Positions 15,054 through 27,004 are shown, numbered from the stretch's first letter. The stretch: DNA of 64,000 nucleotides from an uncultured Pirellulaceae bacterium (GCA_964623055.1 CAZURK010000044.1:2152-66151); one strand, 5' to 3'. Numbers and translations are program-made. The notes: a model not told the origin generated them from the sequence alone.

Positions 15054-17876
15054 ATGAAGCAAACCTCTCGACGAACAAGCCGGATGCGTACGGCCGCCTG
15101 TTCGCTGTCCCTGTGCCTCGCTGCGGCGGCCGTGTTGACCGCCGCTGATGCCGACACGAGGCCTGCCGCGGAAGCGGACAGGGATGCGGCCGGGAAGCAA
15201 CGGCTGGAAGACAAAATCATGGAGGCCGTTCGGGCGTACGCCGAAGCCGACGATCACGTGGAGGCCATGTTGGCAGAAATGAAACAGGCCGAAAACGAGT
15301 TGGCCCAGTTTCTCAAGAATGCCCAAGAGAAGGGAATCCGGGTGAAGAGAACGGATCCTGAGTACGAGGCGTTGCTGGGGCGGGCCTCGCCCCGACGAAT
15401 ATGGAGGTACGCCGGCAGAAGGAGCCCGAAGGTCAGGGCTGCGATTGATCAGTGGATCGAGCGATATCCGCCCCGGCTCGGACGTGACTTTTTCTACATC
15501 GACACGCTGCCGATGGATAATCCCAACATCAAGGTCTTATTCCCAGACCCGAAAGCCACGACGCCGGAGACGTTCACGCACGTCATCAAAGACGGTGACA
15601 CCACCTATACGATCGACTATTCGCGTTTCAGCCTGTACACGCACGACTGCAAATTCCTCTATCCCGCGGGCGATCATCCGTGGGAGCTTGATCCGGCGAA
15701 ATTCCCCGCCTTCGATCATGGCCCGGACAGGACCTACGTCGGCAAGATACACGAATACCCCACGTGGTTTGCCATCGGGTACGTGCGAGAGGATGGCACG
15801 GTCCGCGGTTTGATCTACGGCGAGCGACGACAGGAATGGACGGATTTCGAAGGAACGAGGATCCTCAGACGCCACCTGGATAAGTGCCGTTTCCGAGATG
15901 ATTACTACACCTATGTGGACATCGAGGTGCCGGCACCCGGTTTCCGGGATGGGCCCATCTACGAAATCCCGATTGGAATTGAGATTTCCTACCAGAATCT
16001 GCTCAAGTCGAAAGGCAGCATTCCGATCCTGTTCGAAGTGCTGGAAATGGCGTGGCTGGAAGTCGCAACTGCCTATTGGGGACATTGTCGTATGCACGTC
16101 AGGCCGGCACAGGTGGTAGTGAGAACCGGCATGAAGACCTGCCCTCATGCAACCCGCTTCAAGGATTTCGACGAAACGACGACACCGGTATGGGCAGCCA
16201 AGTCGCTCGAACTACCGGAAGAGTATTTTCCCGAGCTTACGGCCGAAGAAAGGAGTTACGGGCCTGCAAACAACATTGGGCGGCAGGTCTGGCCGAAGGT
16301 GTGGCCAGAATTGAAGGTAGACAAGATCATCCATATCAATTTCGGTGCTGTTGCATCCCTCGGCGGGAACGTGTGTTCGACCCACTTCTACCCGTCAACG
16401 CGGTTGAAACCGTATAACAAGATTCCCTGTCGCGAACAAATCCTAACGCATACTCTGTTGCACGAGTTCAGCCATACCTATCGTGGAAGGCACTTCACCG
16501 GGTACGAGGAAGGATTGACCATGTATGCCCATGGGGGGCACAAGCCGAGCCCGACCCGGATTGTCGGCAGTCATGTGGTGAAATTCAGAAAGCACCATGA
16601 GGACACATACAGGGAGCACAACCGACCTGTGAGAATCGCCACCGATACCAGCGATGCTCCGTTGCCGCCTTACGCGTCTTTGGAAATGTTGCAGATAGTC
16701 AATACGGGCCAAAAGAAGATTGACGTACTAGCGAACGATCATGACTACAACGGCGATCCGATCCAGCTCGTTTTTGTGGACAAGACCTCGCGACGGGGAG
16801 GCACGGTAACCGTTTCCGCGGACCATACGGTGGTCTATACTCCTCCCGCGCACAAGATCGGGCTCGACCGTTTCAAGTATCGCATCGCTGACTCGACGGG
16901 CTACGAATCCGTCGGCTACGTGATTATCGACCTTGTCAATCCATCGCAGTATTACTACCCAGGCGGACCGGAAACCGCCGAGTCGCGCGGCTTCACCGGC
17001 GCTCAGGTGGCTTTCGTTCCGAGGACGAACCGGAGGAAAGCAACGGCCGTCGTGGCAGATACTCTGCCCGTGGAAATCATGGTTCCTGAAGCGGGACACT
17101 ACACGATCGACTTCAAGTTCTTCATCCGAGGTGATTGGAAGGCGGGAGTTGCCCCCAGGACACATCTCATTTCGGTCAACGGCAAGGCTTTCGAGGAAGT
17201 CGTGTTTCACTCGCCCCAACCCACGGACGAATGGAGACGTAAGAAGGTCTACAACCTTCCGCTGAAGAAGGGCGCGAACACACTGATGATCTCATCGCTT
17301 TCGGGTAATAAAGTCAGCGGAAAAGCGATAAGAGGAAACCTGCCGAGTACCGCTCCGACCACCTTCCGCAGAATTGCCGTGTCTTCAGCGGGCTCCTATA
17401 TCATCGGTTTTTCCGGTGCCGGAAGAAACGCGTCTTTCGACCTCATTGAGTCCGGGGAGTTGTTCAAGACCCACGTCAACGGACTGGAATACGGCTGGAG
17501 CAGTGAGAACGCTCCAAGCAGCGCTGGTGCGGTCGGATTCATGGATCGACGGGGGCAAGCAACTGGGAACAAATGGGAGATGGTCCTGCCGAACGGTACG
17601 TACAACGTGCTGTTGGGATGCAGAGGTGGTGAGTACGGTGCACTGGATTACCATGCGTACAAGACCGACATATTTCGAGAAGGTTCGGGCAAGGCCTCAA
17701 ACGTCAACAACTTCCGAGTCGAGGGAGTGCCTTTTCATGATACGGATGGCCCGGAGAACATTCTGAACCTGATCGAGCACCAAGTAACGGTCAAAGATGG
17801 CAGACTTACTGTTGAAGTTGGCGAAGGCGCTCTGGCCCCTCGGCTTTGCTACATCAATATCAGTAGAGTCAATTAG
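15054..17876 (+). CDS. Large secreted HExxH zinc-metallopeptidase-like protein with a VCBS/cadherin-like domain and CBM/malectin-like C-terminal domains
   Basis: AAGGAG RBS and a signal-like N-terminus. The HExxH motif is HTLLHEFSHTY. VLANDHDYNGDPIQLVFVD...GGTVTV...VVYTPP...GLDRFKYRIADSTG is typical of VCBS/cadherin-like repeats. The C-terminus has two beta-sandwich-like segments, GANTLMISS and LEYGWS...WEMVLPNGTYNVLLGCRGG. Confidence 0.7.
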   Translation: MKQTSRRTSRMRTAACSLSLCLAAAAVLTAADADTRPAAEADRDAAGKQRLEDKIMEAVRAYAEADDHVEAMLAEMKQAENELAQFLKNAQEKGIRVKRTDPEYEALLGRASPRRIWRYAGRRSPKVRAAIDQWIERYPPRLGRDFFYIDTLPMDNPNIKVLFPDPKATTPETFTHVIKDGDTTYTIDYSRFSLYTHDCKFLYPAGDHPWELDPAKFPAFDHGPDRTYVGKIHEYPTWFAIGYVREDGTVRGLIYGERRQEWTDFEGTRILRRHLDKCRFRDDYYTYVDIEVPAPGFRDGPIYEIPIGIEISYQNLLKSKGSIPILFEVLEMAWLEVATAYWGHCRMHVRPAQVVVRTGMKTCPHATRFKDFDETTTPVWAAKSLELPEEYFPELTAEERSYGPANNIGRQVWPKVWPELKVDKIIHINFGAVASLGGNVCSTHFYPSTRLKPYNKIPCREQILTHTLLHEFSHTYRGRHFTGYEEGLTMYAHGGHKPSPTRIVGSHVVKFRKHHEDTYREHNRPVRIATDTSDAPLPPYASLEMLQIVNTGQKKIDVLANDHDYNGDPIQLVFVDKTSRRGGTVTVSADHTVVYTPPAHKIGLDRFKYRIADSTGYESVGYVIIDLVNPSQYYYPGGPETAESRGFTGAQVAFVPRTNRRKATAVVADTLPVEIMVPEAGHYTIDFKFFIRGDWKAGVAPRTHLISVNGKAFEEVVFHSPQPTDEWRRKKVYNLPLKKGANTLMISSLSGNKVSGKAIRGNLPSTAPTTFRRIAVSSAGSYIIGFSGAGRNASFDLIESGELFKTHVNGLEYGWSSENAPSSAGAVGFMDRRGQATGNKWEMVLPNGTYNVLLGCRGGEYGALDYHAYKTDIFREGSGKASNVNNFRVEGVPFHDTDGPENILNLIEHQVTVKDGRLTVEVGEGALAPRLCYINISRVN

Positions 17877-18222: not shown

Positions 18223-19314
18223 ATGACACAGACGGCTATATTCCCAGGACGATACGTTCAAGGCGAAGGCGTTTTGGAGCGTCTCGGCGACGAGGTCACG
18301 CGGTTGGGCAGCCGTGCGTTGATCGTTGCCGGGAGGACTGCGGCGCAGGAGATCGTTCCAGGCTATCTCGACAAGTGGCAAGCGGTTTTTCAAGCTCATG
18401 TTGAACCGTTTGGCGGTGAATGCTCGGATCCTGAGATCGAACGCCTTTGCGCCTTGGCCTCCGAAAAGCAATGCGATGTCATTGTTGGGATGGGCGGCGG
18501 CAAGATTATCGATACGGCCAAGGCGGTTGGCCATCTGGCAAATGCACGCGTAGCCATTGTGCCCACCATCGCGTCGACCGACGCTCCAACAAGTGCCGTG
18601 TCGGTAATCTACACTGTCGACGGCGCATTTCAGCGGTATCTGTTTGTGCCGCGGAATCCAGACCTCGTGCTGGCCGATACCGCGGTGATCGCGCGGGCCC
18701 CGGTTCGCTTTCTGGTGGCTGGAATGGGTGACGCGCTGGCGACTTGGTTCGAGGCGGAATCGTGCCGACAAAGCTATGCTGAGAATCAGTGCGGGGGCAA
18801 CGGGACGCTCGCCGCCTACGCCATTGCTCGTTTGTGTTACGACACGATTCTTCAGCACGGAGTGGCGGCGAAGGCGGCATGCGCCGAGGGCGTTGTGACG
18901 CCGGCATTGTCGCACGTGGTCGAGGCAAACACGCTGCTCAGCGGACTTGGCTTCGAAAGCGGTGGGCTTGCTGCTCCGCATTCGATCCACAACGGTTTGA
19001 CTCGACTCGAAGGCACGCACGACTATTACCACGGCGAAAAGGTGGCCATCGGCGTGCTGGCCAGCCTGTTCCTTACCGACCGACCGAAGTCGCTGATCGA
19101 AGAAGCCTACGAGTTCTGCGAGTCGGTTGGCCTGCCGACCACGTTGGCCGATGTGGGCCTTGCCGACGTGACCAACGAAGATCTGATGCTGGTGGCCGAA
19201 GGAGCCTGCGCCGAGGGCGAAACGATCTACCATGAACCGTGTCCCGTTTCCCCAGCCGCGGTGCTGGCCGCGCTCAAAACGGCTGACCGTATCGGCCGGC
19301 AGCGGCAAGGTTGA
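18223..19314 (+). CDS. gldA: Glycerol dehydrogenase (iron/zinc-dependent alcohol dehydrogenase family III)
   Basis: GGAGGGGA RBS lies before the ATG at 18223. Motifs are IFPGRYVQGEGVL, GMGGGKIIDTAKAV, PTIASTDAPTSA and GDALATWFEA. The ~363-aa length matches GldA. Confidence 0.88.
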   Translation: MTQTAIFPGRYVQGEGVLERLGDEVTRLGSRALIVAGRTAAQEIVPGYLDKWQAVFQAHVEPFGGECSDPEIERLCALASEKQCDVIVGMGGGKIIDTAKAVGHLANARVAIVPTIASTDAPTSAVSVIYTVDGAFQRYLFVPRNPDLVLADTAVIARAPVRFLVAGMGDALATWFEAESCRQSYAENQCGGNGTLAAYAIARLCYDTILQHGVAAKAACAEGVVTPALSHVVEANTLLSGLGFESGGLAAPHSIHNGLTRLEGTHDYYHGEKVAIGVLASLFLTDRPKSLIEEAYEFCESVGLPTTLADVGLADVTNEDLMLVAEGACAEGETIYHEPCPVSPAAVLAALKTADRIGRQRQG

Positions 19315-19501
19315 CTACGATCTCGGCTATCGAGGCTACGTCGATGTGCGTTGCGTCTGAAGACCACGGAATCTTCCGCCATCGCCGTGTTCTCGCTCCC
19401 AAACAGCGCGAATCTGCTACAATATCCCATAGGTTCAGTTTGCACGGTCTCGTCACGTTAAGTGGCGACCAGTCTCTCCGTCTATCGTGGGGGAAGGTCA
19501 A

Positions 19502-20566
19502 ATGGAACTCGTTGCCGGTAGCCTGAACGTCGAAGTCGACGAGTACCTGCACGCTGGATATCTGTCCGCAAGTCCTCGGACTTTCAAAGATTATGGGGCC
19601 CATAGTCTCCAGCATGCCAAGACCAACCTGATCGATGTCAAGGCAGCCTTGCGGCTAGAGAGTGCTGAGAGTCAGTCCACACATCAGCCGACAGCCGAAG
19701 TCTCCGTCCGACCGACGGCATTGGCACCGGCTTCCATGGCCAGCGAAGGCTTTCTGTTGGCGACATTGTTCTTCTTCTTTGCTTATCTCATCGGCCTCTA
19801 CTATCGCCGCATCCGAAAAATGGAGAAGCCCGGATGGCGTCCTTGGCTATTGGCTGTGACGCCACTGCTGGTTGTCGTTGTCGGCTCCTGCGCGTATCAA
19901 GTCTATGAAGAGCACCGATTGAATAGCCTTCCTCCGCCATGGACGGGCGTCCCCGTCGAAGGTTACGAGAACCCGGTGGCGGCAACACAGGCGATCTTGC
20001 ATGGTTTGGTGGCAAACGCACTTCCAGGAAGCTCGGCGGACGTCAGGGAACTGGCCGCAATCCAGCACGAGGTGGCGTTTCCCGTCCCGACCGAGAATTA
20101 TACGCCCGGCATGTCCTACGCTCAGACAATGTACGGTCGCGATGGGTGGGGTAGGGAGTTCAAATTCGACCCACTCCCAAAAGGATGCTATCGCATCGTC
20201 AGTGCAGGCGCAGACGGATCGCATGGCACGTCGGACGACATCGTTCTGGTCACGCCCAAGAAGGACGCTGACAACTGGGAGCAATTGGTCAATGGAGTGT
20301 ACATGCGCCGGATGCCCGGAGATACGTATGCCTGTTTCATTCACCGTGTCACGCATGCTAACTTCCGCTGGATGGACTCGGCGATGGCTCGGGATCTAAC
20401 CGGAACAGAGGTGTTCGATACGTTCAGCTTTGATGATCAGTCGCGTGGCACAAAGGAGGAACATCCTATTTTGGCTCAACTGAGGGAGCATCAGGAATCC
20501 CACCCGCTCGACCAAGAGTCAGATCCGCTGTTTTTCGTCCACATTGCGCCTACCGAGGATGGTTGA
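19502..20566 (+). CDS. Hypothetical bitopic/polytopic membrane protein, first gene of the CPBP-rSAM operon
   Basis: GGGGGAAGG lies before the ATG at 19502. About 85 aa are cytoplasmic, followed by two TM helices, FLLATLFFFFAYLIGLYY and WLLAVTPLLVVVVGSCAY. The periplasmic domain carries RIVSAGADGSHGTSDDIVLV, reminiscent of the GspG pseudopilin C-terminal motif. Confidence 0.6.
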   Translation: MELVAGSLNVEVDEYLHAGYLSASPRTFKDYGAHSLQHAKTNLIDVKAALRLESAESQSTHQPTAEVSVRPTALAPASMASEGFLLATLFFFFAYLIGLYYRRIRKMEKPGWRPWLLAVTPLLVVVVGSCAYQVYEEHRLNSLPPPWTGVPVEGYENPVAATQAILHGLVANALPGSSADVRELAAIQHEVAFPVPTENYTPGMSYAQTMYGRDGWGREFKFDPLPKGCYRIVSAGADGSHGTSDDIVLVTPKKDADNWEQLVNGVYMRRMPGDTYACFIHRVTHANFRWMDSAMARDLTGTEVFDTFSFDDQSRGTKEEHPILAQLREHQESHPLDQESDPLFFVHIAPTEDG

Positions 20567-21293
20567 CGAACCGGCAGCCGCGGCTGGAGAGCATCAATCG
20601 CCAACCGATGCCTCTCCCAAAAGACTGATGCGCGAAGCACTGTCGCTTGCGCTGATCTTGGGTCTTACGCTCGGCGTGTCGGCGCTGGAACGACGCGATC
20701 TCATTCCGTGGCAGGGCTATCCGTCGTCCTTGCTTCTTCTGATTCTCTGTCTGTGGCACTGGAAGCATTTTCGTATTGACCTCCGGCTCTTTCGCCCACA
20801 GACACAGCGCCGGGTATTTCCACTCGTTTTCTCTGCCGTGCTTGTGGCGACGCTGCTGCTTTTCGCGAATGTACCGCTTTCGCCCAGGGTCGGTTATGCT
20901 CCCTCGTACTGGCAGTTGCTGCACTTGATCGTGGTTGTGCCTCTATCCGAAGAGTTGTATTTCAGGGGATTGCTTCTGGAGCATTTGCGTAGAGGATTCT
21001 CTGCCATTCACGCCGTCGTGCTTTGTACGTTGTTGTTTGGTCTTCTCCATCTGCCGGCCGGGGCGGGGTTCCTGGCCGGAGGACTTTCGTTGGTCGCGTG
21101 TATACTGGTGTTAAGAAACGGCTCGCTCGTCTACGCCTTTCAGCTACACGTGGCGTGGAACGCGATGACGCAAATCGCCCGTATCAATGACCGCTCGTCG
21201 CGGTGGCTTTGGGCAGCCACGGCATCCGCCATTATCGCCGCGTTGGCGGCCGGTCTGTTCACTGGACGATCGACTCGTGATTCAACTCCATGA
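20559..21293 (+). CDS. CPBP-family (CAAX/Abi) intramembrane glutamic endopeptidase
   Basis: All three CPBP motifs are present: SEELYFRG (EExxxR), FGLLH (FxxxH) and HVAWN (HxxxN). The product is a multi-TM protein. The ATG at 20559 overlaps the upstream stop (ATGGTTGA). Confidence 0.85.
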   Translation: MVDEPAAAAGEHQSPTDASPKRLMREALSLALILGLTLGVSALERRDLIPWQGYPSSLLLLILCLWHWKHFRIDLRLFRPQTQRRVFPLVFSAVLVATLLLFANVPLSPRVGYAPSYWQLLHLIVVVPLSEELYFRGLLLEHLRRGFSAIHAVVLCTLLFGLLHLPAGAGFLAGGLSLVACILVLRNGSLVYAFQLHVAWNAMTQIARINDRSSRWLWAATASAIIAALAAGLFTGRSTRDSTP

Positions 21294-22662
21294 CCACCTC
21301 GAAGCCCGGAAAGCGTCCCTGCACGAAGAGCGTGACGAACGACACCTCTTCGTCTGGGGAGATCTCGGCCAATGGCTGGTGGTCGACGACGAGGCCGCGA
21401 TCCTGCTAAAGTGCTTTGCCGAATCACGGTCGGTTGCCGAGGCGTTGACGGAATACTCCCGCGCGGTCAACAAGAGTCGCGACGCTGCGGTGCAAGAAGC
21501 CTTGCCCGTGGTTGACGCTCTGGTTGAACGGGGAATTCTCGGCTCGCCACCGCCATCGCCGTCGCCACCCGAAGAGCGTTTGCGGGTCTCGAACCTGACT
21601 TTCAACATCACCAATCAGTGCAATTTGCGCTGTCCTTGGTGCTACAATCCGCGTTCGGAAGACTGCGAGATCCCAGTTTCTGATCTGATGAACTGGTTGG
21701 ACAAGGGGGCCGAAGCACTTGACCGCGACGCTGCGTTCATCATTCTCGGTGGCGAACCTTTTCTCGACGAAGCGCGGTTGCTGTCAACCGTTCAAGAAGT
21801 TCGCGAGCGATCGTCCGGCGAGATCCTCGTATCGACCAACGGAACGCTCCTCGGCGATCAAGCCCCAGGGGAACTTGCTGCGGCCGACGCGACCGTGCAG
21901 ATCTCTCTCGACAGTCCCTCGCCAGAGCGACACAATGCGATCCGCGGCAACCGTGTGTTCGAGCGTGCTGTGTCGACCACCAAGCGACTGATCGATGCAG
22001 GCGTACATACCGTTCTTTCCATGGTCTTGACGCAGTCGAGCGAAGAGGAGCTTGAGGCATACTTCGATCTGGCCGTCGAGATCGGTGCACACGAGGTGCG
22101 TTTTGTTCCGCTTCGCCGGATTGGTTGCGGAGTCGACTATTCTGATGTGGCCCCGGATCTGTACGAGTGTTTTCGAAGACTTGTGGAAATCCTGAGACGA
22201 AGGCCCGAACTGGCCCAATTGCTACATCGTGACTTCTTCTCCATCCTCATGACCGTGTGTCGCTTCAGCCGCCTCCGCAGCAATTGCGGGATCGGTCGCC
22301 GGTGTTTGTTTGTCGATGCCAGCGGAGATATCTTCCCGTGTCCGAATCATCGCGGCAGCAAGTATTCCTGCGGCAACGTGAGCACGGCACCCCTTGCCCA
22401 GTTACTTGAGGACTCGATGGTGCTAAATGACCTTCGAGGCCGATACCATCTCGACGGTATGCCAACGTGTGCGCGGTGTGCGTACCGCTACTGGTGTGCG
22501 GGGGACTGCCGTGCCGAAGCCCTTGCCACCACCGGCAGGCCAAACGCGCCCTCGCCATACTGCGATGCCATCAAAAAAGTAATGACGGAGATGTTCTGGT
22601 TGATGGCCGACGGCTGGCAGGGAATGGGCAACCGAGAACAGGTAGTCCGACCCTGGAGTTGA
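21277..22662 (+). CDS. Radical SAM / SPASM-domain maturase with an N-terminal PqqD-like RiPP recognition element
   Basis: The CxxxCxxC cluster is NQCNLRCPWCYN (Cys codons at 21619, 21631, 21640). The SAM-binding GGE motif is IILGGEPF. The SPASM cysteines are CGIGRRCLFVDASGDIFPCPN and CARCAYRYWCAGDCRAEA. The N-terminal segment WLVVDDEAAILLKCFAESRSVAEALTEYSR...ALPVVDALVERGIL is PqqD-like. The start is uncertain: I chose the GTG at 21277, which overlaps the CPBP stop, while the track ORF begins at 21187. Confidence 0.85.
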   Translation: MIQLHDHLEARKASLHEERDERHLFVWGDLGQWLVVDDEAAILLKCFAESRSVAEALTEYSRAVNKSRDAAVQEALPVVDALVERGILGSPPPSPSPPEERLRVSNLTFNITNQCNLRCPWCYNPRSEDCEIPVSDLMNWLDKGAEALDRDAAFIILGGEPFLDEARLLSTVQEVRERSSGEILVSTNGTLLGDQAPGELAAADATVQISLDSPSPERHNAIRGNRVFERAVSTTKRLIDAGVHTVLSMVLTQSSEEELEAYFDLAVEIGAHEVRFVPLRRIGCGVDYSDVAPDLYECFRRLVEILRRRPELAQLLHRDFFSILMTVCRFSRLRSNCGIGRRCLFVDASGDIFPCPNHRGSKYSCGNVSTAPLAQLLEDSMVLNDLRGRYHLDGMPTCARCAYRYWCAGDCRAEALATTGRPNAPSPYCDAIKKVMTEMFWLMADGWQGMGNREQVVRPWS

Positions 22663-22724
22663 GATGACTCGTGACGAATCGCAGTTTATAATGGAAGGCC
22701 GTTCGGCCTCCTCCGGAGAGAGAC

Positions 22725-23549
22725 ATGTCACAGTCCTCGGTGGCTTGCCCGCATTGCCAACATCACCTGGCCAATTCTCCCGAATTGGCCGGTCTGGCCG
22801 TCAATTGCCCTGAGTGCGGTGGTCAGTGTCTCATGCCTGCGGCGAACCCAGTTGCAGCCCCTCCGCCGCCTAAGGCCAAACCGGCCGCAGCACGTCCTGC
22901 CCCGGCGAAGAACCCAAGACCCGCGGCCCCTGCCACCGCTGGCCCCACCGTCGCGCCACCTGGTGCGGAAACACCTTTGATCAACACCGACCCTGCCGCG
23001 CCCAAAACCAAACGATCGACGCCGCGCGGTCGAAGACGCAAGTCCCCGGCTTCGGCTTGGGGGCTGGCCGGACTGTTGGTCACACCGGCAATCATCGGTC
23101 TTGTCGTTGTGTTGCTGGTCGTTGGGCTGAAGGAGAATAAGAACGCGGAACAGCGGTTGTTCGGGACTTGGGAGGTCGATTTGGACGATCTTGCCCGCCA
23201 GGGACTGGGCACGGGGGTTGGTGCTGGATTCCACAGCCGCGAAAACCCTGGCGACGCCCTTCGCGATGCGGGAATCAGGGTCGGCATCCGCTTCCAGAAA
23301 GACGGACGTGTCTTCCTGGATTCCCGCGTCCCGGACGAGTCGGAGCGGGCGTGGGGTAGCTGGAAAGTGGTGCGATCCAAGAAGACATCGATGCGAGTTT
23401 CGATCGACTGGGACGACGAATTCGGACGCGAACTCGTCGACATCGAGTTTCTATCCCAGGATCGTTATAGGGCGAAATCCACTGCGCTCTTTGACCGCAC
23501 CACGCTGGTTTATCAACGCCTCGAGCCCCCCAGCACGGCTAACAAGTAA
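22725..23549 (+). CDS. Hypothetical zinc-ribbon / proline-rich linker / single-TM protein
   Basis: GGAGAGAG RBS. The zinc ribbon is CPHC...CPEC. A ~90-aa Pro/Ala-rich linker follows, then the TM helix GLAGLLVTPAIIGLVVVLLVVGL and a ~140-aa C-terminal domain. Confidence 0.6.
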   Translation: MSQSSVACPHCQHHLANSPELAGLAVNCPECGGQCLMPAANPVAAPPPPKAKPAAARPAPAKNPRPAAPATAGPTVAPPGAETPLINTDPAAPKTKRSTPRGRRRKSPASAWGLAGLLVTPAIIGLVVVLLVVGLKENKNAEQRLFGTWEVDLDDLARQGLGTGVGAGFHSRENPGDALRDAGIRVGIRFQKDGRVFLDSRVPDESERAWGSWKVVRSKKTSMRVSIDWDDEFGRELVDIEFLSQDRYRAKSTALFDRTTLVYQRLEPPSTANK

Positions 23550-23599: not shown

Positions 23600-26500
23600 A
23601 TGCTTGCACGATACGCGTTCTGGACCATCCTCTTGGCTCCCCTCGCCTCCAGCGTCGCTGGCGAACTGCTACCGCGTGCTTCAGAGCCCGTCGAAGTCGT
23701 ACTTCCCGATTTCGGTGCGGAAGTGCGAGCCTTCGACGCGCCGGACCGTCGGCCTGTGGCGTGGTGGCCGCATGTGGTCAATGCCGCTTGGGGCGGCGGT
23801 CGCGGCGGGCCGGAACGCCGGGGCGGGTGGCTGGACGAGCATTGGGAAATGGTCGACTACTTGGACCGTTCGGCTGATTACACGACTCACGAGTATCTCA
23901 AGCACCGCGGAATCTGGTACGAAGTGTATGGCAGCAACGAGTACCAGGAGACTATCCACTTCCACGAGGAGGGCGCCCGCGAACTGCTCTGGGAGAACGG
24001 TATCGCCCGCGACATGCTTGGTAAGCACGTGCTCAGCGAGCACTACAACACCGGGGTCGACTGGTGGCGCGAGCGTATCGGCTGGGATGCGTACATCGTC
24101 TGCAACAACGCGCCGCGCTGGTGGTCGGTGATCAACTACGACTGGCTCACCAGCCCGCTTCTTGGCTTTGCCATCAGCCAGGACAACATCGGCGGTCCGA
24201 CGTCGCGGATCGGCGCCGGCGGACACGGCCGCTATTGCGACTACTGCAACGCCAAGTTCTTTCACCACCTCGCCCAAGCCGATCGGCTGCCGGAATTCCG
24301 CCGCCAGTACAAGCACATTCGGGGCTACGTCCAAGCCAACATGATGGACGTGGTTCACCAATTGCCACCGCACGCACAGCATCGCTGGAACGCGGCCGAG
24401 GCCGAATTGATGGCACGCATGTGCGAACCGCCCGTGATGTCGGAGTACCACAAATTCCTTTACATCTCCCACCTGCACAACTTCATCCGGCACTACCAGG
24501 ACGCCAAGTTGATCGCCCAGCGGCAGGGACGCCAATACGACGTGCACGGGAATCAGGGCGGGTCGTTCATCGGGCCGAACCCGTATCAAGTGGCACTGTC
24601 CGACTTCGTCGACACCGTCTGGTTCGAGAGCAAAGGGATTTCGACGTACGACATGTTCAAGTTCGGCTGGAACAATGCATCGGGCGCCTTCCGGTACAAG
24701 ATGGGCCGGGCCATGACTCGCGGCGTGAAGCCGTTCATGTCGATGACCGGCTTCCACAAGCACACGGCAGACATCGTCGAACACGAAATGGCCGAAGCCT
24801 GCGCTGGCGGCGGTGTGTTGTTCGTGAACCAACAAGCGTTCGAGCAAGAGCCGATTCTGCTGGACAAACTGACCGAGTACTTCCGCCTGCGCCACAATCA
24901 CCGCGCGATCTACGCCAATCACACAAAGCAACCGTATGCCCGGGTCGCCCTGGCGTACTCGATCCCCACGATGATGTACCGCAACTACCAGTACACCGGC
25001 GACGCCCCGCCGAACAACGCCCTGCCCGGCACGGCCCGAGCGTTGGAGGAAGGTCACATCCCGTTCGAAGTCGTTATCCTGAACCACCCGGAAATCCACG
25101 CCGACCGCGTGACGCTGGAACAGCTCAAGCTGTACCGAATGATCATACTCCCGGCACTGGAATGTCTCAGTGACGCACAGATCGACTTGTTCACCCGGTA
25201 TGTGCAGACCGGCGGCACTTTGGGACTGATCGGCCAGTCCGGCATCCGCGACGAGAACAATCTGCCGCGTTCCGGTTCGGCGGAGCCCCAATGGCAGAAG
25301 GCAGGCCGCGTCATCGACATCCTTCCCGGTCGCAACTTTCTGCCGACTCGCACGCGCGAAAACGATCAGACGCGCGAGCTGACGGCAGTGGCGCTCGAAG
25401 CGCTGCGCCAAGGTCTCGACAGCGATACGATCATCTCAGGCAATCTACCGCGGTTGCTCTGGATCAACACGTGGAATCACGGAAATGACTTCATCAGCGT
25501 TCACTTCGTCAACTACAACGTCGACTTCGAATCCGGCAATGCCACGCCGACCGAGTCGGCGGAAGTGACCGTGACGCTACCGCCGGATATCCCAGCCGAA
25601 CAGGCTGCCTGGCTTGGACCTGACGGCACACGGCGAACACTGCGAATGGTGGTTCAAGGAACGAAAGTCACGGTGACACTGCCGCCGGTCCGGGTCTACG
25701 GCGTGCTGATCGTGGGTCGCAAAGAACTGGATCGAGCATACAACTCATTGGTACGCGGCGACGCCCTGATGGCACGTGCCACGATGGCCTGCGACGGACA
25801 ATGGAACGAGTTAGAGGACCGTGCGGATGCGCTCGCTGCCAGACGTACGGTCGTCGCGACTGAGTTGAACCGAAACGGCGGAGTGGCTGCAGCCGAAGAC
25901 TATGCCCGGCAGGCGTCGGCTCTCATCCAGGAGATCCAGCGTTCACAGGATGTCGCCTACATGTGCCGCGTAAGTGAAAGTGTCAATACGGACGGCGCAG
26001 TGCTGGCGCTCGATTTCGGTGGATCACGCGAACAGCCTCTGTGGCGCATCGTGGAGCCAACAACCACTTACGATCCGCAGACCGGTTTTGGCTGGCTTCC
26101 GTGGAATGACGAAACCGACGCCACGCCCGAGGAGCGATACTACGCGATGGCGCAGAAGTACGGCGGCAGCATGGCAACCCAGGTAACCGCTGGTCGATTG
26201 CTGTTCTGGCCCTACCGCCAGCCGCCTCCCGCGCCACTCAGCACGAACCTCGCGTGCGGCATGTCTCGTAGGTTTCGCATCGACATCGAACCGGGCGATT
26301 ACACCGTGCGCGTGGTGACCACGAATCCGTCATGGACCAATCGCAATTTCTTCGTTTCCGGCATGGTACGTCTGAACGACGAGTATCGACTGTTGGACGC
26401 GGTACACGACAAAGGAACTCTGGAATCGCGCGAATTCTTCGTCAAAACACCCGACGGCAAGCTCGATTTCACCTTCGGCGGCCCAACCGGTTGGGGTGTG

Positions 26501-27004
26501 GCCGCTCTGATAATCCGACGCGGCGGTCGTTCCACGAGCGATCACCAAACGACCGAAGGCTTGCGTGCTTGGCACGTCAGTCCGCGCTTTGCCAATCCCG
26601 ACTGGTACCCAATCACTCAGGTGACCTGCCCACCGGAACGTCGACTTGCCAGTCTCCCCGAGGCCGACTGGACCATGATCAAGGCCCCCGTCGCCGGTCT
26701 TCCCGTGGTCGATATGGGCACGAACCGCCAAGCCGAGATCGGCGACGTCGTATACGCTGCTACGACGATCGAGTCACCAACAGCGCGAGATGTCCATTTC
26801 CATTTTGGCGCCACCAGCCAAGCGCAGTTGTGGCTCAACGGCAAGTCAATCGGATACGCGCCGAACGAAAAGGGCTTGCGACGCGACGAGTTGGTCGTTC
26901 CGGTACATCTCGCCGAAGGAGAGAATACGCTGGTGGTCAAAATCCAGCGATTCTGGGAACGTCGTTGGATGTTCTACGCCAGCCTGACCGACGGGGGCGA
27001 TTAG
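23600..27004 (+). CDS. Large secreted hypothetical protein, glycoside-hydrolase-like architecture (unknown family)
   Basis: AAGGAAGGA RBS and a signal peptide. The middle segment IPFEVVILNHPEIHADRVTLEQLKLYRMIILPALECLSDAQIDLFTRYVQTGGTLGLIG resembles the GH42-type trimerisation/glutamine-amidotransferase-like domain. The C-terminal segment FHFGATSQAQLWLNGKSIGY...GENTLVVKI resembles a galactose-binding-like domain. Confidence 0.65.
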   Translation: MLARYAFWTILLAPLASSVAGELLPRASEPVEVVLPDFGAEVRAFDAPDRRPVAWWPHVVNAAWGGGRGGPERRGGWLDEHWEMVDYLDRSADYTTHEYLKHRGIWYEVYGSNEYQETIHFHEEGARELLWENGIARDMLGKHVLSEHYNTGVDWWRERIGWDAYIVCNNAPRWWSVINYDWLTSPLLGFAISQDNIGGPTSRIGAGGHGRYCDYCNAKFFHHLAQADRLPEFRRQYKHIRGYVQANMMDVVHQLPPHAQHRWNAAEAELMARMCEPPVMSEYHKFLYISHLHNFIRHYQDAKLIAQRQGRQYDVHGNQGGSFIGPNPYQVALSDFVDTVWFESKGISTYDMFKFGWNNASGAFRYKMGRAMTRGVKPFMSMTGFHKHTADIVEHEMAEACAGGGVLFVNQQAFEQEPILLDKLTEYFRLRHNHRAIYANHTKQPYARVALAYSIPTMMYRNYQYTGDAPPNNALPGTARALEEGHIPFEVVILNHPEIHADRVTLEQLKLYRMIILPALECLSDAQIDLFTRYVQTGGTLGLIGQSGIRDENNLPRSGSAEPQWQKAGRVIDILPGRNFLPTRTRENDQTRELTAVALEALRQGLDSDTIISGNLPRLLWINTWNHGNDFISVHFVNYNVDFESGNATPTESAEVTVTLPPDIPAEQAAWLGPDGTRRTLRMVVQGTKVTVTLPPVRVYGVLIVGRKELDRAYNSLVRGDALMARATMACDGQWNELEDRADALAARRTVVATELNRNGGVAAAEDYARQASALIQEIQRSQDVAYMCRVSESVNTDGAVLALDFGGSREQPLWRIVEPTTTYDPQTGFGWLPWNDETDATPEERYYAMAQKYGGSMATQVTAGRLLFWPYRQPPPAPLSTNLACGMSRRFRIDIEPGDYTVRVVTTNPSWTNRNFFVSGMVRLNDEYRLLDAVHDKGTLESREFFVKTPDGKLDFTFGGPTGWGVAALIIRRGGRSTSDHQTTEGLRAWHVSPRFANPDWYPITQVTCPPERRLASLPEADWTMIKAPVAGLPVVDMGTNRQAEIGDVVYAATTIESPTARDVHFHFGATSQAQLWLNGKSIGYAPNEKGLRRDELVVPVHLAEGENTLVVKIQRFWERRWMFYASLTDGGD

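Follow-up and report, generated by a model that had tools for sequence, protein, structure and literature searches.

What does a peptide-maturing enzyme act on when no precursor peptide is seen beside its gene? This question is raised by three genes at positions 19502-22662 of a 64,000-nucleotide stretch of DNA from an uncultured Pirellulaceae bacterium (GCA_964623055.1 CAZURK010000044.1:2152-66151), the whole of which is called the window below. The three overlapping open reading frames (ORFs) lie on the same strand and encode a membrane protein (g1), a CPBP protease and a radical S-adenosylmethionine (rSAM)/SPASM enzyme with an N-terminal recognition element (RRE) of the kind that serves peptides made by the ribosome and then modified post-translationally (RiPPs). 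New peptide chemistry comes mainly from enzymes of this type, and the substrates of nearly all that are known to us are small, soluble precursors whose cores are C-terminal. An earlier note on this DNA had reported no visible precursor for the operon. That description was misleading, as the signal is carried by residues 1-24 of g1 itself and recurs on relatives as small as 53 aa and in tandem arrays. Judged from its genomic context, the operon is probably a member of a conserved, unnamed maturation system whose substrate is g1's own product.

We collected 45 family loci by scanning one genome per species, 46 with the window, and searched their neighbourhoods with the window proteins and with iterated hidden Markov models. 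The rSAM family was sharply bounded: about 117 clusters (90% identity) were found at E ≤ 1e-67, and the next matches appeared only at 1e-16. All 45 genome loci (L001-L045) were in metagenome-assembled genomes (MAGs) and none was in a cultured isolate; the family carries no annotation because it has so far been found only in uncultured lineages. The loci were labelled as Pirellulales, other Planctomycetota (Phycisphaerae, Tepidisphaerales), Polyangia/Myxococcota and Thermodesulfobacteriota, and further as "Rickettsiales", Spirochaetia, Armatimonadota, Victivallales and Thorarchaeota. The five loci labelled Rickettsiales resembled Myxococcota-type loci with a long form of g1, and the taxonomy of these bins may for that reason be wrong.

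A g1-family gene adjoined the rSAM gene in 42 of the 46 loci, and a CPBP gene lay immediately 5' of it wherever one was present (27 of 46, ~60%). A lack of synteny among homologues had been named beforehand as what would refute the system; the linkage of the rSAM gene to the membrane protein and to CPBP holds across phyla. The order was g1-CPBP-rSAM in Pirellulales and Polyangia and g1 was downstream in most others, so the g1-rSAM linkage survives rearrangement among lineages. Motif genes (see below) also persisted beside the rSAM gene in the ~17 loci without a nearby CPBP, which are bare pairs of rSAM and putative substrate between unrelated genes. All-vs-all clustering of ORFs of at least 30 aa within 5 kb of the rSAM gene in the 46 loci returned only g1, CPBP, rSAM and overlapping-frame shadows; no transporter, ATPase or regulator was found as a conserved neighbour in these regions. 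Among ORFs of at least 20 aa in the intergenic flanks of the window, including 19200-19560, there was no conserved small ORF. A hidden small precursor was rejected, since neither the flanks nor the clustering gave anything conserved besides the three genes, and the earlier failure to see a small Cys/Ser/Gly-rich ORF was thus upheld.

The sole element common to all members of the g1 family was an N-terminal motif together with the transmembrane (TM) helix that follows it. The motif, M-x-[ILV]-x3-[SG]-x7-[YF]-x-H-x-G-Y-x-[SA]-A, is anchored at Met1, and the window g1 and all its distant relatives align from the first residue. Counted from the His (position 0) in 58 unique sequences, Met was at -16 in 77% (at -17 in 18%), [ILV] at -14 in 81%, [SG] at -10 in 80%, [YF] at -2 in 94%, Gly at +2 in 89%, [SA] at +5 in 92% and Ala at +6 in 89%, and the His and the Tyr at +3 were present in 100%. 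The entire conserved element lies within residues 1-24, and the part that is recognised and the part that is modified are inseparable by sequence. A full-length protein had earlier been offered as a possible substrate; the N-terminal tail of the membrane protein is indeed favoured, with the signal in residues 1-24 and not over the whole 85-aa tail. Cysteine occurred in only 4 of 62 motif segments, and the chemistry is therefore not expected to be thioether formation, contrary to the thioether mass shifts that had been named, beside crosslinks, as something to look for. Sactipeptide or ranthipeptide chemistry was rejected on the same count, thioether-donor Cys in the core being essentially absent.

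Searched as a regular expression, the motif matched once in the 64-kb window, at 19502. The family loci, 520 kb in all, gave 49 matches in 37 of the 45 loci, the loci that were missed having mostly non-ATG starts. The surroundings of 34 unrelated rSAM/SPASM genes (419 kb) gave none. For the reciprocal test, a degenerate DNA pattern encoding the motif alone was run on a metagenome collection and returned 80 loci. The motif was in frame and accompanied by a TM helix in 32 of these, and the rSAM family gene was present in 22 of the 32; in the ten loci without it, the DNA to one side of the motif genes was shorter than 1.2 kb, or the locus consisted of tandem motif genes only. A CPBP gene was present in only 4 of the 32. 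In-frame matches without a TM helix were set aside as fortuitous or unrelated; one of them (L129/L146) began at a Met inside a YcaO protein.

An 82-aa soluble protein at L124:4560-4808 (-), beginning MRIISAAAHGDLSSFLHAGYCSASPGY, came close to the long-form motif, with no TM helix and no rSAM gene nearby. In L124 its neighbours are the primase-like, DnaB-like and AAA genes of a phage-like replication module, and a diverged copy was found from L154:1911 (+). The resemblance could be due to chance, or the protein could be a phage's imitation of the rSAM substrate, serving as a mimic or decoy.

The relatives of g1 comprised mini-proteins of 53-105 aa, medium forms of 170-260 aa and long forms of 330-410 aa. 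The mini-proteins consist of the motif and one or two TM helices only and lack the GspG-like domain described below. Two to five paralogues stood in tandem right after the rSAM gene in 13 loci, with five each in L029 and L044, and in independent gene calls the rSAM gene had a 59-aa gene next to it and, after that, a 169-aa gene that matched T2SSG weakly. The canonical RiPP trait of a short, multi-copy precursor beside its maturase is present in the family in this way, and in the window the signal stands on a 354-aa protein. The smallest member seen, a 53-aa ORF at L170:4034-4195 (+) (MKIYSGSLKEPPGTFLHAGYLSAANENAIFVKTPIVLSALLVLLLLLKKIFRKP), lies directly 5' of CPBP-rSAM and comprises the motif, a single TM helix and a tail of basic residues; the order matches that of the window, and only what is essential of g1 is left. 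Gene callers can hide such precursors: this ORF was uncalled on a 3.36-Mb contig, and the signal in the window lies inside a large ORF. The long-form family was sizeable: at E ≤ 1e-30 it gave 140 clusters (50% identity), and in almost every one the alignment started at residue 1. A word-indexed protein search with the medium-form alignment gave only 12 proteins, none of them informatively named. In two Thorarchaeota loci (L026:9378-9617 and L028:4113-4706), 79-86-aa single-TM proteins with the core F-F-H-G-M-Y, Met replacing Gly, adjoined the rSAM gene, and no CPBP was present.

The third gene of the operon matched Pfam Radical_SAM (PF04055, 74.6 bits; cut-off 29.5) and SPASM (PF13186, 31.8 bits; cut-off 21.5), with the GGEP motif at aa 158-161. 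The SPASM cysteines (C337, C355, C398, C401, C407, C411 and C429) and the RRE residues W27, W33, D37 and L82 were invariant in 25 diverse homologues. These scores and this alignment confirmed the CNLRCPWC motif, GGEP and full seven-Cys SPASM domain that had been noticed by eye. In the AlphaFold2 (AF2) model, with a mean predicted local distance difference test score (pLDDT) of 91.8, the N-terminal element earlier called PqqD-like folds as an RRE (strands E7-10, E15-19, E22-27 and E32-37; helices H38-45, H53-63 and H68-84), these strands and helices having pLDDT 90-97. Pfam PqqD was sub-threshold, at 12.8 bits for the window RRE (12.8-16.7 range) against a cut-off of 23.4, and the RRE assignment therefore rests on the fold; as modelled, the domain has the winged-helix RRE fold of three strands and three helices.

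Foldseek aligned the whole rSAM model over ~450-490 columns with the RRE-bearing CteB, SuiB and TigE, followed by anSME, SkfB, ChlB and PqqE (6c8v). A profile search of the PDB put the relatives in the same order, PqqE (6c8v) among them, with CteB at E 1.5e-27 in an alignment starting at aa 35, inside the RRE, and a weak match to GDGT-MAS (7tol, E 6.6e-11). All 76 matches to curated NCBIfam equivalogs were far below their cut-offs. The best was StsB, with 133.2 bits against 625, and the cut-offs were likewise not reached for CbpB, MftC, GeoRSP, NirJ, AhbD, PapB, ScmE/F, DynA, QhpD, nif11, PqqE, anSME and HxsB. PADLOC gave only a generic pVip similarity for the rSAM protein (54.7 bits over aa 108-237) and nothing for g1, CPBP or the zinc-ribbon gene downstream. 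Membership of a named family was rejected for both the rSAM subtype and g1, as no Pfam, NCBIfam or PADLOC model reached threshold, and the enzyme stands outside any named system, as had been supposed.

The second gene was correctly assigned as a CPBP protease: it matched Pfam PF02517 (Rce1-like) with 62.4 bits against a cut-off of 22.4, and its three catalytic motifs are intact (EELYFR at aa 131-136 for EExxxR, FGLLH at 160-164 for FxxxH and HVAWN at 197-201 for HxxxN). The NCBIfam models of the Mrt sorting families were below cut-off (MrtJ 35 vs 75, MrtS 27.8 vs 130, Mrt_core 20.4 vs 100 and PEP-CTERM CAAX 29.9 vs 81). On one contig, a 703-aa protein (P0039) is an in-frame CPBP-rSAM fusion with the motifs intact in both halves, and the CPBP C-terminus is placed in the cytoplasm because of this fusion. 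In a crude eight-helix reading EExxxR is near the cytoplasmic end of helix 4, and the protease may therefore cleave either the basic loop or, ahead of its export, the g1 tail. Two further arrangements of the gene were seen. In a 281-aa protein on one contig (P0167), the N-terminal half of a g1 homologue is joined to the C-terminal half of CPBP, probably as an assembly or deletion artefact, and an Armatimonadia MAG has three tandem CPBP paralogues 5' of the rSAM gene (L034:5495-8019).

The first gene encodes two TM helices, predicted by AF2 at residues 83-105 and 113-141, joined by a loop with a net charge of +5. The segment after the first TM helix had a net charge of at least +2 in 55 of 59 family members (mean +3.7), the N-terminal tail had a mean of -1.3, and the single-TM mini-forms end in a basic tail. 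By the positive-inside rule, the basic segment would place the N-tail and the GspG-like domain on the outer face. The topology is thus probably N-out, loop-in and C-out, and the 85-aa tail that had been called cytoplasmic is probably not so in the mature protein. Residues 1-21 were predicted to be disordered (pLDDT <50), as expected of a peptide substrate. Residues 41-50 were confidently structured (pLDDT ~95) between disordered stretches, and in the model this would fit packing of the tail against the C-terminal domain on the same side.

The C-terminal domain of g1 (aa 158-348) is globular and contains the GspG-like segment. The Pfam T2SSG match was borderline (22.8 bits; cut-off 21) and confined to aa 198-246, and no other Pfam or NCBIfam family was found for g1. 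Profiles of g1 relatives matched solved GspG structures (medium-form profile A3: 29jd_A, E 1.1e-5, and 5wda_A, E 0.0015; profile A2: 29jd_A, E 0.0068), the g1 model gave a local 37-column Foldseek match to 3g20_A (E 0.32), TIGR01710 (GspG) scored 18.4 bits against a cut-off of 88.85, and one g1 homologue is annotated as GspG by NCBI. The prepilin motif G|F-x-x-x-E was found by regular expression in 0 of 62 family members. Membership of the genuine type IV prepilins was rejected, the cleavage/methylation motif being absent from the 62.

From these results we propose the following mechanism. In the cytoplasm, the RRE would take up the start of g1 (MELVAGS) as an extra beta-strand and would thereby bring the [YF]-x-H-x-G-Y element, which lies ~10 residues beyond, into the active site of the radical SAM/SPASM enzyme. 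The fixed 16 residues from Met1 would then act as a ruler, which would explain the invariant spacing. The enzyme would make a Cys-independent modification at the His/Tyr motif; our guess is a C-C or C-N crosslink involving His17 and/or Tyr20, by analogy with PqqE and MftC, which are directed at Tyr, and with dynobactin and its His-Tyr link. The TM hairpin would insert with its basic loop in the cytoplasm, and the modified, slightly acidic N-tail and the GspG-like domain would end outside. As no transporter is encoded, export would fall to the hairpin itself. CPBP would cut the substrate at or in the membrane. A product that remains anchored in the membrane seems to us the likelier one, since the extracytoplasmic domain retained by the long forms is large and well conserved. 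The combined reading, of N-terminal His/Tyr crosslinking on membrane-anchored proteins, export carried by the hairpin and completion by CPBP to give a tethered, extracytoplasmic product, is a tentative one that we regard as a real possibility. On this reading the product would be a His-Tyr site that is redox-active or binds metal, or else would cap a pseudopilin-like protein, and the system, so far undescribed, would be spread over at least six bacterial phyla and the Asgard archaea.

Several points weigh against this reading. The crosslink is its weakest step, and the evidence for g1 as a substrate is comparative throughout. It is demanding that the 82-residue tail of the long form should cross the membrane after modification and without a signal peptide, and CPBP could have a role in immunity or quality control instead of processing. 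No g1 gene was found in four family loci; two of these (L009 and L022) are truncated, but the other two (L003 and L012) are not obviously so. Finally, one metagenome locus (L145) has ~1.1 kb of DNA on each side and no rSAM gene.

The tandem arrays of diversified copies are typical of natural-product precursors, and the minimal forms contain the motif and a TM helix alone. Together with a protease gene coupled to the maturase, and with a tail predicted to be extracytoplasmic yet no transporter gene, these features would also suit a diffusible RiPP whose core is the N-terminal stretch of 25-35 residues of g1. The hairpin and C-terminal domain would then be a follower and built-in export vehicle, and CPBP would cut the modified peptide free on the outer side of the membrane, as a small crosslinked signal, antibiotic or cofactor precursor. 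We consider this unlikely, as ~40% of the loci have no nearby CPBP and the long forms conserve a globular domain of ~190 residues over the 140 clusters (50% identity). Moreover, the residues past the motif are unremarkable, and the motif itself is near-invariant across phyla, more like a functional site than a natural product undergoing diversification. The size of the long forms, far bigger than a typical precursor, raises another explanation, in which g1 is an accessory (an anchor, docking partner, immunity protein or receptor) that recruits the rSAM enzyme through its RRE, and the true substrate is a peptide or another molecule with its genes at some other site. RREs can serve as docking modules and lipid-modifying rSAM/SPASM enzymes exist, as the weak GDGT-MAS match recalls. 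However, peptide maturases are much closer to the enzyme in sequence and fold, no other conserved ORF lies within 5 kb in the 46 loci, and a scaffold would not be expected as arrays of up to five paralogues or as 53-aa mini-proteins. An accessory role therefore appears less likely still than a diffusible peptide.

The motif adjoins a TM helix, as sorting signals do, and MrtJ, MrtS and the PEP-CTERM-associated protease are weak sub-threshold matches of the CPBP protein. It might accordingly be an N-terminal sorting or cleavage signal for CPBP, comparable to the C-terminal Mrt/myxosortase signals, with an unrelated or regulatory role for the rSAM enzyme. This is very improbable, because the motif tracks the rSAM gene and not CPBP: ~17 loci have rSAM and motif without CPBP, and the motif-only scan met the rSAM gene in 22 of 32 loci and CPBP in 4 of 32. 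No Mrt model reached its cut-off (Mrt_core 20 against 100), and the conserved signal here is N-terminal. Modification of g1 itself remains the preferred reading in what follows.

The layout of the genes was read directly and bore out the translationally coupled three-gene operon described earlier. The CPBP ATG (20559-20561) and the g1 TGA (20564-20566) fall within ATGGTTGA at 20559-20566, and the rSAM GTG (21277-21279) is followed 14 nt later by the CPBP TGA (21291-21293), giving a second overlap at 21277-21293. GTG 21277 was taken as the rSAM start because the homologues are ~461 aa long and align from residue 1, and ATG 19502 as the g1 start because all g1 relatives begin at the equivalent Met. 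A block ~80 nt 5' of g1 may be the operon promoter; it is kept between the window and its two closest relatives, L001 and L002, although L002 is more diverged and the rest of its upstream spacer differs. A sigma-70-like site (22664-22692, ATGACT-17-TATAAT, 10/12 consensus match) lies between the rSAM stop and the zinc-ribbon gene. At the level of consensus, the two promoter-like sites hint at an operon of exactly g1, CPBP and rSAM. The coordinates of the features are given in Table 1.

Table 1. Features of the operon and its upstream region in the window (aa, residues of the encoded protein)
Feature	Position	Strand	Basis
Promoter-like block, GCTCCCAAA ... TACAAT (TACAAT 19418-19423)	19395..19423	+	Conservation in relatives; inference
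g1, 354-aa membrane protein, proposed substrate (long form)	19502..20566	+	Family adjacency to rSAM
N-terminal motif, aa 1-24, MELVAGSLNVEVDEYLHAGYLSAS; proposed recognition strand and modification site	19502..19573	+	Family-wide conservation
Invariant core HAGY, His17 ... Tyr20, codons cac gct gga tat	19550..19561	+	Sequence read
Transmembrane hairpin, aa 83-141, basic connecting loop YYRRIRKMEKPGWRP	19748..19924	+	AF2, loop charge
GspG-like segment, aa 198-246, DGWG ... SAGADG ... TSDD	20093..20239	+	Pfam T2SSG, relatives' profiles
CPBP (Rce1-like) intramembrane glutamic protease	20559..21293	+	Pfam and intact motifs
RRE-radical SAM/SPASM maturase, 461 aa	21277..22662	+	Family, AF2 model, Foldseek, PDB profile search
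RRE (PqqD-like) domain, ~aa 1-90, then P/S-rich linker	21277..21546	+	AF2 fold
CxxxCxxC radical SAM cluster motif CNLRCPWC, aa 115-122	21619..21642	+	Residues read, homologue alignment
SPASM region, seven invariant Cys, C337 ... C429	22285..22563	+	Pfam SPASM, homologue alignment

The flanking genes are unrelated to the operon and encode a glycerol dehydrogenase, a cadherin/Big_9 protein, a GH42-like protein and a zinc-ribbon/TM protein. The zinc-ribbon gene (22725-23549) encodes a Pro-Ala-rich protein of 274 aa with a single TM helix and no Pfam or NCBIfam family, and it recurs only in L002, the closest relative with downstream sequence. This protein had been listed as a candidate substrate; it was rejected and placed outside the system, as the gene is shared with L002 only, has no family match and has its own promoter-like site. 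The protein with Big_9/cadherin-like domains (15054-17876, 940 aa) and the GH42-like protein, of 1134 aa with a weak match to the GH42 trimerisation domain (23600-27004), are apparently unrelated to the operon.

If g1 is the substrate, the family would represent a new substrate class and probably a new crosslink. It would also point to what a CPBP protease may do, the bacterial substrates of these proteases being, to our knowledge, mostly unknown. It would be a case of rSAM/RRE peptide maturation with an unprecedented substrate architecture, differing in a Met1-anchored, Cys-free N-terminal site that is centred on an invariant His and Tyr, and in the placement of such sites on membrane-anchored proteins, from 53 aa to GspG-like proteins of ~400 aa, with no transporter in the cluster. 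The family signature is sharp and testable by sequence. Full-text searches of the literature, subscription-only papers being outside their scope, gave no description of the g1 motif or of the rSAM-CPBP-g1 cassette.

As proposed here, g1 recalls the type IV prepilins and the pseudopilin GspG: it is membrane-anchored, its possibly GspG-like globular domain would lie outside the membrane, and its N-terminal extension would be processed by a polytopic membrane protease of its own. However, g1 has two TM helices where prepilins have one, the protease is CPBP and not an aspartic prepilin peptidase, and no assembly ATPase or platform genes lie nearby.

PqqE, acting on PqqA, and MftC, acting on MftA, are RRE-dependent rSAM/SPASM enzymes that modify an invariant Tyr of a ribosomal peptide. 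The window enzyme matched MftC and PqqE only partially (106.5 and 74.1 bits against cut-offs of 265 and 381). PqqD and MftB are separate proteins, whereas the RRE is fused here, and PqqA and MftA are soluble peptides of ~25-30 aa whose Tyr is close to the C-terminal end. DynA, DarE and the triceptide enzymes, which form cyclophanes, crosslink aromatic residues in a Cys-independent way. Dynobactin contains a His-Tyr N-C link (PMC10288494), and a His/Tyr crosslink in H-x-G-Y is therefore chemically plausible. The window enzyme scored 84.7 bits against the DynA cut-off of 450, and the precursors of dynobactin, darobactin and the triceptides are short and soluble, with C-terminal cores and export by transporters.

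In sequence and fold, the closest enzymes were CteB of the SCIFF system, StsB (133 bits) and SkfB, with CteB matched by Foldseek at E 5e-18 and a TM-score of 0.69 over ~467 columns that include the RRE. The skf operon pairs the rSAM enzyme SkfB with a putative protease, SkfC (PMC8172795). CteB, StsB and SkfB make Cys-to-C-alpha/beta/gamma thioethers on small soluble precursors with an N-terminal leader and a C-terminal core. The g1 system differs from these in lacking Cys, in having its conserved site at the very start of the protein and in a putative substrate that is anchored in the membrane. The g1 system shares with skfB/skfC the pairing of an rSAM enzyme and a putative protease, and we take SkfC to be of the CPBP/CAAX type.

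In logic, the closest system was QhpD/QhpC/QhpE, which matures the small subunit of quinohemoprotein amine dehydrogenase. QhpD, an RRE-type rSAM/SPASM enzyme, crosslinks a protein subunit instead of a free peptide in the cytoplasm, and the subunit then undergoes proteolysis and ends outside the cytoplasm. The NCBIfam model quino_hemo_SAM aligned with the window enzyme over aa 66-464, with 83.5 bits against the QhpD cut-off of 453. The crosslinks of QhpC are Cys thioethers, whereas the g1 motif has no Cys, and in place of the subtilisin-type protease and ABC exporter of the Qhp system the present operon has a CPBP protease and a TM hairpin built into g1 itself.

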